The translations under genes and the position numbers were made by a program. The notes below the pieces were generated by a model. It did not search any database. It was not told the origin of the DNA and saw only the letters and a program-made list of their open reading frames with translations. A stretch of DNA of 64,000 nucleotides from an uncultured Acidobacteriota bacterium (GTDB lineage: Bacteria; Acidobacteriota; Thermoanaerobaculia; Gp7-AA8), in the NCBI GenBank assembly GCA_937870635.1, contig CALMZP010000084.1, forward strand, positions 5,335-69,334, given 5' to 3'. Of the stretch, positions 34,011 through 35,497 are shown in pieces. Numbering within the stretch: the stretch's first letter is position 1; each line of letters begins with the position of its first letter.

Positions 34011-35060
34011 TTAGCCAAGAGCCACCTTCCTTTCACGTTTCGGGCTTTTCACCTTCGGACTTACTCCACGCTCCCGCAACCTCCGCTTGAACGCGGTCAT
34101 CGACAATGCCGTGTCGATAGCGTGACTCGCCTCCTTCCTTGTCAGTTCTGCCGGGTCTGCTTTGCCTTTCGGGTACAGGCAAACGAATAGCGGACACTTT
34201 GTCAGTTTCGAGGCAGCGAGTTCGGTGTTCCTGATCCCCGCGCCGTCTTTGTCGAACATGAAAAAGATTCGGCGGGGTCGAAGTGACCGAATGATCTGCG
34301 CCTGCCTGTCTGACAAACCTGTTCCGAGAATCGCCGTGGCCTGGATGCCCATTCCCTGCAACCGGATCGCGTCGAGCGAGCCTTCGCAAAGAACGAGGCC
34401 GTGAGAGGATACCTGCTTCCTGTCGAGCTTGCAAGCCCCGAATAGCAGGGCCGTCTTGACGGCACCCTCGGGCCAGTAGAGGTACTTCGGCCAGTCCTTC
34501 GAGCGGATCGCCCGCTTGATCAGGAACCGGCTGATCCCGCGCTCGTCGTCGGCGGGAATGACAATCCGTCGTTCATCCGCGTCCCACCCAAGCCCCCACG
34601 TGGAGATCGCTGCTGCGTCGATCCCTCGCGCTGACAGGTATTCAAGTGCAACAGGAGGCAGGTAGGTAGAAAAGTCGTCCAACCGAGCGACCGCGTTTTC
34701 ATCACGATCTCCGATGGCGGCTCGTCTAACGCGGCCATCAGCGCCCCGAGACTTCCGCTTGGAGCCAGGCCCAAGTGAGACTCGCGTGTGCTGAACGATG
34801 ACCTTGCGAGCTTCTTTTTCACTGATCCCCTTGACTAGCGCGATGGCCTTCTCGTAGGTGCCCGAGATGCCGCACAGCGCGAAGCAATGCACCAACGGCT
34901 TTTCGAGGTTGATCTGAAAATGCTTCTTGGTCGATCCATGATCGGGGTTCGGGCACACAACGAGGGGCGCAAACCCGCCTGACAGATCAGCGTTGGGCGG
35001 GAAGTCAACGAACTCCTCCCACAACGCAACCGCGTCCAACTTTCGCCCACGGTAATTCAT
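34011..35060 (-). CDS. dnaG: DNA primase (Zn finger + TOPRIM)
   Basis: CPNPDH..HCFALC, KYLY, LCEGSLDA and MFDKDGAG. Confidence 0.9.
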   Translation of the reverse strand: MNYRGRKLDAVALWEEFVDFPPNADLSGGFAPLVVCPNPDHGSTKKHFQINLEKPLVHCFALCGISGTYEKAIALVKGISEKEARKVIVQHTRVSLGPGSKRKSRGADGRVRRAAIGDRDENAVARLDDFSTYLPPVALEYLSARGIDAAAISTWGLGWDADERRIVIPADDERGISRFLIKRAIRSKDWPKYLYWPEGAVKTALLFGACKLDRKQVSSHGLVLCEGSLDAIRLQGMGIQATAILGTGLSDRQAQIIRSLRPRRIFFMFDKDGAGIRNTELAASKLTKCPLFVCLYPKGKADPAELTRKEASHAIDTALSMTAFKRRLRERGVSPKVKSPKRERKVALG

Positions 35061-35497
35061 GATGCCCTAAGAAGCCTAAGCTGATTGACAAACCCCATGC
35101 GCCGTTCAAGTTCAGCACTAGGAGTTATCCGACCACGCCCACCCGATTTTTCAGACTGAATCGTATTCGCATACTCCAACAGCAACTCAGCCTGTGCCAG
35201 TTTTTCACCTACAAGGTACTCGCAAATGATCGGGAGGAAATCACGCATCGCGTTTGCCCCTTCAAGACTCCAACGCCAGCACGCTCGGTGAGGGCCATGA
35301 GCCGGTGATTGGCTTAGGCTCCCACCGAACATGTGACGTAGACGCACCAAGGGGGCATTGTCAACCTGTCCCGCCGATACCGAAGGCTTGAAAATACGAC
35401 CATGTGAAACAGTGATCGTAAAGCATCCTTCGCCATCGAGGAACCCTGCCGCCCATGCGACCGCCACAGGATCGAGCTTGCGCCCCCGGTAGTTCAC
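35057..35497 (-). mobile_element. free-standing LAGLIDADG homing endonuclease carrying the original primase N-terminus
   Basis: WAAGFLDGEGC motif; begins MNYRGRKLD like the downstream primase. Confidence 0.92.

Follow-up and report, generated by a model that had tools for sequence, protein, structure and literature searches.

A LAGLIDADG gene on the start of a phage-type primase gene and a primase restarting on a synonymously diverged copy of its first codons

Mobile endonuclease open reading frames (mORFs) of fungal mitochondria form gene hybrids, described from atp6 of Allomyces macrogynus and from atp6, atp9, cox2 and nad3 of Glomus sp. According to the part of that report that was available, the element brings with it an in-phase C-terminus of the host gene, diverged in nucleotides but conserved in protein sequence, and the native C-terminus stays behind (PMC3630166). 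Judged by analogy, these hybrids are the nearest described system to the locus treated here. It lies in a stretch of 64,000 nucleotides from an uncultured Acidobacteriota bacterium (GenBank assembly GCA_937870635.1, contig CALMZP010000084.1, positions 5,335 to 69,334 of the forward strand; below, the window), in which an open reading frame (ORF) of the LAGLIDADG endonuclease family occupies the start of a phage-type primase gene.

As in the hybrids, so far as the available part of the report describes them, the endonuclease ORF lies inside a protein gene and in phase with it, a second copy of the displaced end is present, and the native copy matches close relatives (PMC3630166). The nucleotide identity of the inserted copy is 64–81% in the Glomus hybrids and 72 and 67% here, the protein sequence being nearly identical. 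One further site in the window, 59703–60212, has the same C-terminal layout as the hybrids. The differences are, however, several: the host is a phage, the layout at the primase site is mirrored to the N-terminus, and the endonuclease takes the start codon of the host gene together with its coupling. Because the start codon of the primase is taken, the patch must supply a new one. The duplicated stretches are also very short in comparison to the hybrids, only 4–12 codons, and while the hybrids as described leave the native end behind the endonuclease ORF, for atp6 and cox2 outside the mRNA, here it is read within the endonuclease (PMC3630166). Compared with the mitochondrial kind, the N-terminal position, the occurrence in a phage and the takeover of translational coupling would thus be new. 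In the literature searched, in which subscription journals had limited coverage, no description was found of a phage gene start captured in this way, with the gene end re-encoded.

Free-standing homing endonuclease genes of phages, such as seg and mob of T4, share with the present gene their position beside or in essential genes, their sporadic presence, and the expected spread by cutting of an endonuclease-free allele and repair from a carrier; the accessible parts of the sources describe genes of this type as intergenic, with own starts, and as members of the GIY-YIG, HNH or T5orf172 families (PMC2790892, PMC10448857). The window gene instead belongs to the LAGLIDADG family and lies inside a coding sequence; it has no own start and is accompanied by a substitute for the displaced gene end. 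It is not an independent ORF with own start signals, as it owes its start, its first 12 codons and its upstream coupling to the primase. Like a mobile element, it is sporadically present at one precise site among relatives. I-CreI, I-MsoI and I-CvuI are encoded in group I introns of organellar rRNA genes. The window protein resembles them in fold, in profile similarity (about 1e-9 to 1e-15) and in having one LAGLIDADG helix at the predicted dimer interface, but no intron was found around it, and it carries a 12-residue N-terminal piece from the host gene. As with inteins, with fractured genes containing split inteins (PMC2677866) and with the bypass of T4 gene 60 (10.1101/2022.08.31.505936), each as partly accessible, the function of the host gene would survive the insertion. 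Here, however, there is no splicing, split protein or hop, and the host protein is restored by re-encoding the displaced end.

Two copies of the primase start

The endonuclease ORF begins with the codons GTG AAC TAC CGG GGG CGC AAG CTC GAT CCT GTG GCG and the primase ORF with ATG AAT TAC CGT GGG CGA AAG TTG GAC GCG GTT GCG. Both open with MNYRGRKLD.VA and are identical in 11 of the 12 residues (proline in the endonuclease and alanine in the primase at position 10), in mostly different codons as a preliminary description of the sequence had stated: 8 of the 12 codons differ, 26 of the 36 bases are the same and identical runs reach 5 bases at most. Both copies have GCG as codon 12. The stop/start overlaps named in the same description, GTGA at the endonuclease start and ATGA at the primase start, were both present. 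Apart from the LAGLIDADG motif of two paralogues, no other 7-mer following the start methionine was common to distinct ORF starts in the window. In a survey of terminal duplications covering 116 non-redundant family loci and based on a match of eight residues, this site reached 8/8, while the 348 mismatched control pairings reached at most 6/8; such a survey is blind to copies of four codons, and its motif pattern missed the gene at 59703–60212. The match between the two starts is beyond chance.

The endonuclease gene was absent from the site in L007, a relative in which the primase is 73% identical to that of the window. There the primase begins at a GTGA overlap with the upstream ORF, which supports the earlier claim that a LAGLIDADG gene has captured the primase start. 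The ORF directly 5' of the L007 primase (125 aa) is 37% identical to the 110-aa ORF preceding the endonuclease in the window (E 8e-22), and no Shine-Dalgarno sequence was found before the L007 primase start. None of ten further primase loci (L075–L084) had an endonuclease gene upstream of the primase, and in five of the ten the primase starts on a four-base stop/start overlap.

Alignment with an insert-free relative, the check that the preliminary description had proposed, separated the two copies. Over codons 2–9 (NYRGRKLD), L007 shares 23 of 24 bases with the endonuclease-side copy and 17 of 24 with the primase-side copy. The codons for identical residues that differ from L007 number six of eight in the primase-side patch and one of eight in the endonuclease-side copy, the corresponding figure for the whole primase genes being 93 of 258 (36%). 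Residues 1–12 of the endonuclease are also the first 12 of P0012, a 96%-identical primase beginning MNYRGRKLDPVALWEEFVDF. The proline at position 10 is kept on the endonuclease side as in P0012, and from residue 13 on the window primase continues exactly as P0012 does. Because both the L007 DNA and the P0012 residues fit the endonuclease side, the copy on that side is the native one and the insert comprises positions 35025–35461. The endonuclease ORF uses the original start codon of the primase, its first 12 codons and its upstream stop/start overlap, and the primase ORF restarts on a synonymously diverged patch (Table 1).

The preliminary description had placed the genome-typical copy on the endonuclease. 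This was clearly upheld by the L007 DNA and only weakly by codon usage, with a geometric mean synonymous fraction of 0.43 for the endonuclease-side copy and 0.29 for the primase-side copy (72nd and 19th percentile among 8-codon windows). The primase-side patch picks the rarer codon in four of its five synonymous differences from the endonuclease copy.

Two further observations were made in the primase comparison. At 34983–35024 (primase codons 12–25), the window and L007 have one synonymous difference in 13 codons for identical residues, against the gene-wide 36%; this could be a conserved half of the cut site, or chance. In L083 (930–2933), a 667-aa primase homologue has a normal N-terminus, and the match resumes at residue 35 after about 320 extra residues, which may be an intein near the zinc-binding motif.

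Table 1. Features of the primase locus and of the three other gene ends in the window
Feature	Position	Strand	Remarks
Helicase	36082–37572	minus	First in local gene order
110-aa ORF, function unassigned	35494–35826	minus	TGA overlaps endonuclease GTG
GTGA overlap, 110-aa ORF stop / endonuclease start	35494–35497	minus	
Endonuclease ORF, 146 aa	35057–35497	minus	GTG start, TGA stop
Native primase codons 1–12, now endonuclease N-terminus	35462–35497	minus	GTG start
LAGLIDADG core, residues 13–146 and TGA	35057–35461	minus	
Weak Shine-Dalgarno-like AGGG	35065–35068	minus	Inside endonuclease 3' end, 4 nt upstream of primase ATG
ATGA overlap, endonuclease TGA / primase ATG	35057–35060	minus	
Primase ORF	34011–35060	minus	ATG start
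Replacement copy of primase codons 1–12	35025–35060	minus	ATG start, synonymously diverged
Remaining DnaG/Toprim-type primase, codons 13–349	34011–35024	minus	Pfam Toprim_2 E 4e-10; PHROG DNA primase E 3e-33
LAGLIDADG paralogue	58044–58454	minus	Took ribosome-binding site and first 4 codons (MSQL) of 372-aa structural gene 56911–58029
LAGLIDADG paralogue	56419–56886	minus	Took ribosome-binding site and first 4 codons (MAWL) of downstream 130-aa gene
LAGLIDADG paralogue, mirror arrangement	59703–60212 (ATG at 60167)	minus	Took last 12 codons of gene 60164–60661

The endonuclease and its relatives

The 146-aa protein carries the LAGLIDADG motif AAGFLDGEG at residues 16–24, in which, across 50 homologues, G24 never varies and E23 hardly does. 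All six invariant and 12 nearly invariant family residues are kept, including E23, Q44 and K99. Used alone, the Pfam model PF00961 (LAGLIDADG_1) gave a score below its cutoff (19.5 bits vs 23.1, E 0.0019). A profile of the 50 homologues matched the solved structures I-CvuI (4.5e-15), I-MsoI (5.7e-11) and I-CreI (about 4e-9). The AlphaFold2 (AF2) model has a mean predicted local distance difference test score (pLDDT) of 95.2 and includes the core fold alpha-beta-beta-alpha-beta-beta-alpha, a helix at residues 10–23 being followed by the elements E E H E E H H H (E, strand; H, helix). The best Foldseek matches were I-CvuI, I-CreI and I-MsoI, with a template modelling (TM) score of 0.73–0.76 and a root-mean-square deviation of about 3 Å to I-CreI.

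The predicted homodimer scored 0.79, in comparison to 0.00 for the best of three controls, with 100% contact agreement over three runs and a partner pLDDT of at least 86; such a score is reached by 20 of 30 proteins solved as one-chain pairs and by one of 23 solved as single chains. The predicted interface consists of residues 10–23 and their neighbours, with one LAGLIDADG helix from each chain. As solved complexes of like kind exist, the pass may possibly reflect likeness only. Profile, fold and predicted dimer together identify the protein as an I-CreI-like, single-motif LAGLIDADG endonuclease, predicted to be homodimeric. PHROG 5046, which the protein matches at 2e-17, bears the label "HNH endonuclease", and this label is contradicted by the fold and the profile. 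The borrowed residues 1–10 (35468–35497) are modelled as a small hairpin with strands at residues 2–3 and 6–7 and a pLDDT of 96, and residues 10–12 form the start of the interface helix. Because of the hairpin and the helix start, the borrowed residues may form part of the folded structure instead of trailing from it loosely. Inspection of the junction by eye for a pseudo-palindromic target revealed nothing convincing.

The shared N-terminus is at home among the primases. Primase homologues numbered 487 at E ≤ 1e-10, and the motif M-x-[YF]-x-G-R-x-[LI]-D-[PA]-[VI]-x-L-W opens nearly all of the 120 that were listed. In homologues of the endonuclease, on the other hand, the alignment with the window protein begins no earlier than residue 13 or 14. 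Neither a primase-like leader nor a downstream primase was found in any of the 170 loci fetched in viral, metagenome and genome scans with endonuclease alignments, to which the metagenome scan contributed the 80 best of its 152 confirmed stretches; as a positive control, the window itself was recognised. The preliminary description had noted that homologous endonucleases beginning MNYRGRKLD at unrelated loci would speak against capture; no such case was seen in these loci, and the motif is native to the primase family. The leader is thus one of the primase family and not of the endonuclease family.

Primase-like N-termini nevertheless recur in close relatives of the endonuclease. Its closest homologues, namely P0001, beginning MLYRGRELDPVA, P0002, beginning MKFQGRDINPID, P0133, P0134 and P0141, have 12 primase-like residues followed by x-A-W-A-A-G-F, and the N-terminus of each is like that of a different primase subtype. 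Six more (P0135, P0142, P0144, P0148, P0186 and P0193) have 4–5 primase-like first residues, and the full leader was found in only four of the 150 best representatives. A tree of the core alone was built from 94 of 152 candidates, 58 having been dropped for a length outside 115–175 aa or for want of an early motif. It includes a clade of ten rows (Shimodaira–Hasegawa-like approximate likelihood ratio test, SH-aLRT, 96) that holds the window protein and seven other rows with primase-like starts. Protein starts and tree topology suggest that an endonuclease lineage specialised on primases is visible in metagenomes.

Other gene ends and their surroundings

The design recurs at other gene ends with three more LAGLIDADG genes of the window, which makes four sites in one genome. 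At the 58044–58454 site, where GGGAGTGAAA is present in both copies, the endonuclease-side AGC CAG TTG shares eight of nine bases with L202 and the structural gene's own TCG CAA CTG four of nine. At 56419–56886 the captured start reads ATG GCA TGG TTG, and the insert-free L196 and L204 begin the 130-aa gene with ATG GCR TGG TTG; in comparison with L204, the endonuclease-side copy is identical in nine of nine bases and the host gene's own copy in six of nine. The restart of the 130-aa gene in the window is ATC GCT TGG CTT, directly after the nuclease stop. L202 has a nuclease gene at the same site, with the patch GTG GCC TGG CTC, and the leucine codon CTY is common to the window and L202 patches, the native codon being TTG.

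The third gene is arranged as a mirror image. In addition to the last codons of gene 60164–60661, the gene at 59703–60167 took the overlap of that gene's end with the start of the next gene. VGLRLVKTERPT was found twice at this site, with 10 of 12 codons different, and the endonuclease-side copy shares 25 of 30 bases with L202, the gene's own copy 19 of 30. Gene 60164–60661 had no match in the viral scan, yet a relative's copy was located inside L202. The endonuclease side was the more native one at all three of these sites.

Some additional observations concern the same genes. The 130-aa gene appears to start at ATC (56414–56416), two nucleotides past the TGA of the nuclease; in the ORF listing it begins at 56338. 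With ATC as the start, its 130 residues align throughout with the L202 homologue, which has a GTG start, at 90% identity, and the nuclease genes at this site (56419–56886 in the window, 3638–4066 in L202) are only 46% identical. The contrast between 46% for the nuclease and 90% for the flanking gene points to fast evolution or separate invasions. A fifth LAGLIDADG gene of the window, at 48318–48707, starts MAWEHDIAW and the next gene MWDIATD, a faint resemblance only; a sixth relative lies on the same contig just outside the window. In the viral contig L011 (= L038, L112; 2120–3426), the nuclease ends RLTPTHPGDGP and the preceding gene RPTPTHPGGE, a C-terminal duplication that reached 7/8 in the survey.

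The window is part of a single contig of about 60% G+C with nearly all long ORFs on the minus strand. Its gene content is phage-like and includes a DnaB-type helicase, the Toprim primase and structural genes, and an ORF of 1122 aa is, judged by eye, presumably polymerase III alpha-like. The nearest relatives are viral contigs of 64–70 kb. In a genome search, the primase was absent from all 126 other genomes of the same order. A DNA search of a phage collection with 33900–36200 gave no match, and an initial search of metagenomes with the primase as query gave no relative. The 110-aa ORF at 35494–35826 matched nothing in Pfam or PHROG. In four soil sequencing runs the phage was present as short contigs of low depth, none of which spans 35005–35525, so that the runs are uninformative on the presence or absence of the insert; neither joints nor loose ends were found at the phage contigs in these runs.

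Origin of the insert and alternative explanations

The arrangement very probably goes back to a mobile cassette of about 437 bases (35025–35461), inserted in frame after primase codon 12 and composed of the endonuclease core, its stop and the re-encoding patch. The endonuclease would be translated with the timing of the primase, by termination and reinitiation at GTGA in coupling to the upstream ORF. The primase would in turn be reinitiated at ATGA, helped at most by the weak AGGG four nucleotides upstream, which may act as a Shine-Dalgarno-like site. The ATGA overlap, this weak AGGG and the stop/start overlaps of relatives suggest that primase expression may depend on translating the endonuclease, as was proposed earlier. 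In a mixed infection, the homodimer would cut relatives free of the insert in the uninterrupted 5' region of their primase gene, around the junction of codons 12 and 13, and repair would copy the cassette into them. The carrier genome is proposed to be immune because each resident junction holds just half of the native site. The divergence of the patch (10 of 36 bases, identical runs of at most 5) would also remove a direct repeat usable for deletion by recombination.

By analogy with the mitochondrial mORF hybrids, a patch that travels with the endonuclease gene is favoured over a local duplication, since six proteins keep the same junction and since, at the 56419 site, leucine is encoded by one codon family in the patches of both the window and L202. 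A local origin, which we consider unlikely though deserving of attention, would begin with the 5' end of the primase gene duplicated in tandem over a short stretch, for example by imprecise break repair, and an endonuclease gene inserted between the two copies; the one on the primase side would then have diverged in place, by drift or by selection against repeats and self-cleavage. The identity of the patch with the local native sequence in 11 of 12 residues suits this explanation, as distant primases differ at positions 2, 4, 7 and 8 and a synonymously saturated donor should differ in residues too. Independent evolution after insertion was also raised for two of the four mitochondrial hybrids in the part of the report that was accessible (PMC3630166). 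The six endonucleases with the same junction after residue 12 and with N-termini of different primase subtypes suggest instead one spreading insertion design, and the CTY leucine codons that the patches of the window and L202 have in place of the native TTG fit inheritance of the patches with the element. Saturated synonymous divergence in place would, moreover, need long residence, and the insert is missing from L007. No donor sequence was identified, and the signals as to the donor are mixed: the local residues suggest a near donor or divergence in place, and the saturated synonymous sites a far donor or selection. If the cassette did spread by homing, it could by now be a relic that no longer cuts or moves and is kept since its removal would break primase translation. 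Homing endonuclease genes commonly decay after fixation, as is generally known and as the available part of one source also has it (PMC13619312), and the paralogue at 56419–56886, with its 46% identity to the L202 counterpart beside a flanking gene of 90%, suggests fast-evolving genes. This is rather improbable in view of the intact ORF, the conserved invariant and nearly invariant residues and the pLDDT of 95, and the sporadic presence of the insert among relatives is what would be expected of a still-invading element.

Chance, or a leader of the endonuclease family's own, is a highly improbable source of the shared N-terminus. The six proteins with 4–5 primase-like first residues do start M-[RNK]-[YF]-[RKQ] and continue with the family's TDLAW leader. 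Against this stand the 8/8 match, unequalled in the control pairings, the absence of the leader from the 170 family loci, its rarity among the best representatives as opposed to its near-universal occurrence in primases, and the almost complete identity of the endonuclease-side DNA with the L007 primase start. Just as improbable is an intein, a group I or II intron or a translational-bypass element yielding a single primase product from the upstream GTG, suggestive as the position inside the coding region of an essential gene and the GCG at codon 12 of both copies may be. The intein was rejected, as the endonuclease ORF ends in TGA, the primase lies in another frame, and the protein is a bare I-CreI-like nuclease domain without a splicing domain. 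The introns were rejected as well, since no Rfam family matched at E ≤ 1 in 33900–36200, from which a highly diverged ribozyme could escape, although there is no non-coding space for one. A ribosomal hop from GCG to GCG was also rejected, and we know of no precedent for a hop of 437 bases. The gap in T4 gene 60 is 50 nt, according to the part of the source available (10.1101/2022.08.31.505936).

Several results weigh against the insertion of a cassette carrying a diverged patch. The DNA comparison at the primase site rests on one close endonuclease-free relative, L007, and taken alone it is modest (six of eight codons against the 36% background, P about 0.03). The codon usage of both copies falls inside the normal range of the genome. 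Identical-residue codons pooled over the sites 35057–35497, 58044–58454 and 59703–60212 differ in 19 of 25 cases, in comparison to 15.2 expected from independent draws from the codon usage of the genome, and this excess over saturation is not significant (P 0.068); at the primase site alone, six synonymous differences in ten against 5.7 expected do not go beyond saturation. The unlikeness of the copies therefore equals that of saturated synonymous sites and does not demonstrably exceed it. The earlier term "recoded" holds as a description; the recoding may have been selected or may have been brought in by the element from a diverged source. The residues of the patch, 11 of 12 of them local, run contrary to an origin from a diverged donor. 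Long terminal duplications are rare, being found among the 116 non-redundant loci only at this site, at L011 and perhaps at L069. Four of the 12 primase-like rows (P0001, P0133, P0141 and P0186) fall outside the supported clade, in parts of the tree that lack resolution, and that the other leader-bearing endonucleases adjoin a primase is inferred from protein N-termini only.

A still wider reading is conceivable, although we lean towards doubting it. Phage LAGLIDADG genes would have a general route into essential genes, free of introns and inteins: they would nest in frame in the first or last 4–12 codons, take over the translation signals of the host gene and carry a patch kept maximally unlike the native DNA as selected self-immunity, one clade being specialised on phage primase starts across soil viromes. 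The reason for this unlikeness would be that an exact copy restores the enzyme's own cut site and creates a repeat open to deletion.

The arrangement has consequences for phage annotation, where such inserts can be recognised by short repeats that adjacent genes share at their N- or C-termini and where gene starts can be miscalled, as around 56416 with its apparent ATC restart codon. Core genes may have terminal codons of foreign origin by which phylogenies are misled, a point already made for mitochondria. The natural targets of these compact homodimeric LAGLIDADG enzymes would be readable from the uninterrupted gene ends of relatives, and whether avoidance of a nuclease shapes synonymous sites could be tested on this arrangement. 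If true, the cassette would add one more to the known means, introns, inteins, split genes and ribosomal bypass, by which a homing endonuclease gene resides harmlessly inside an essential coding sequence.

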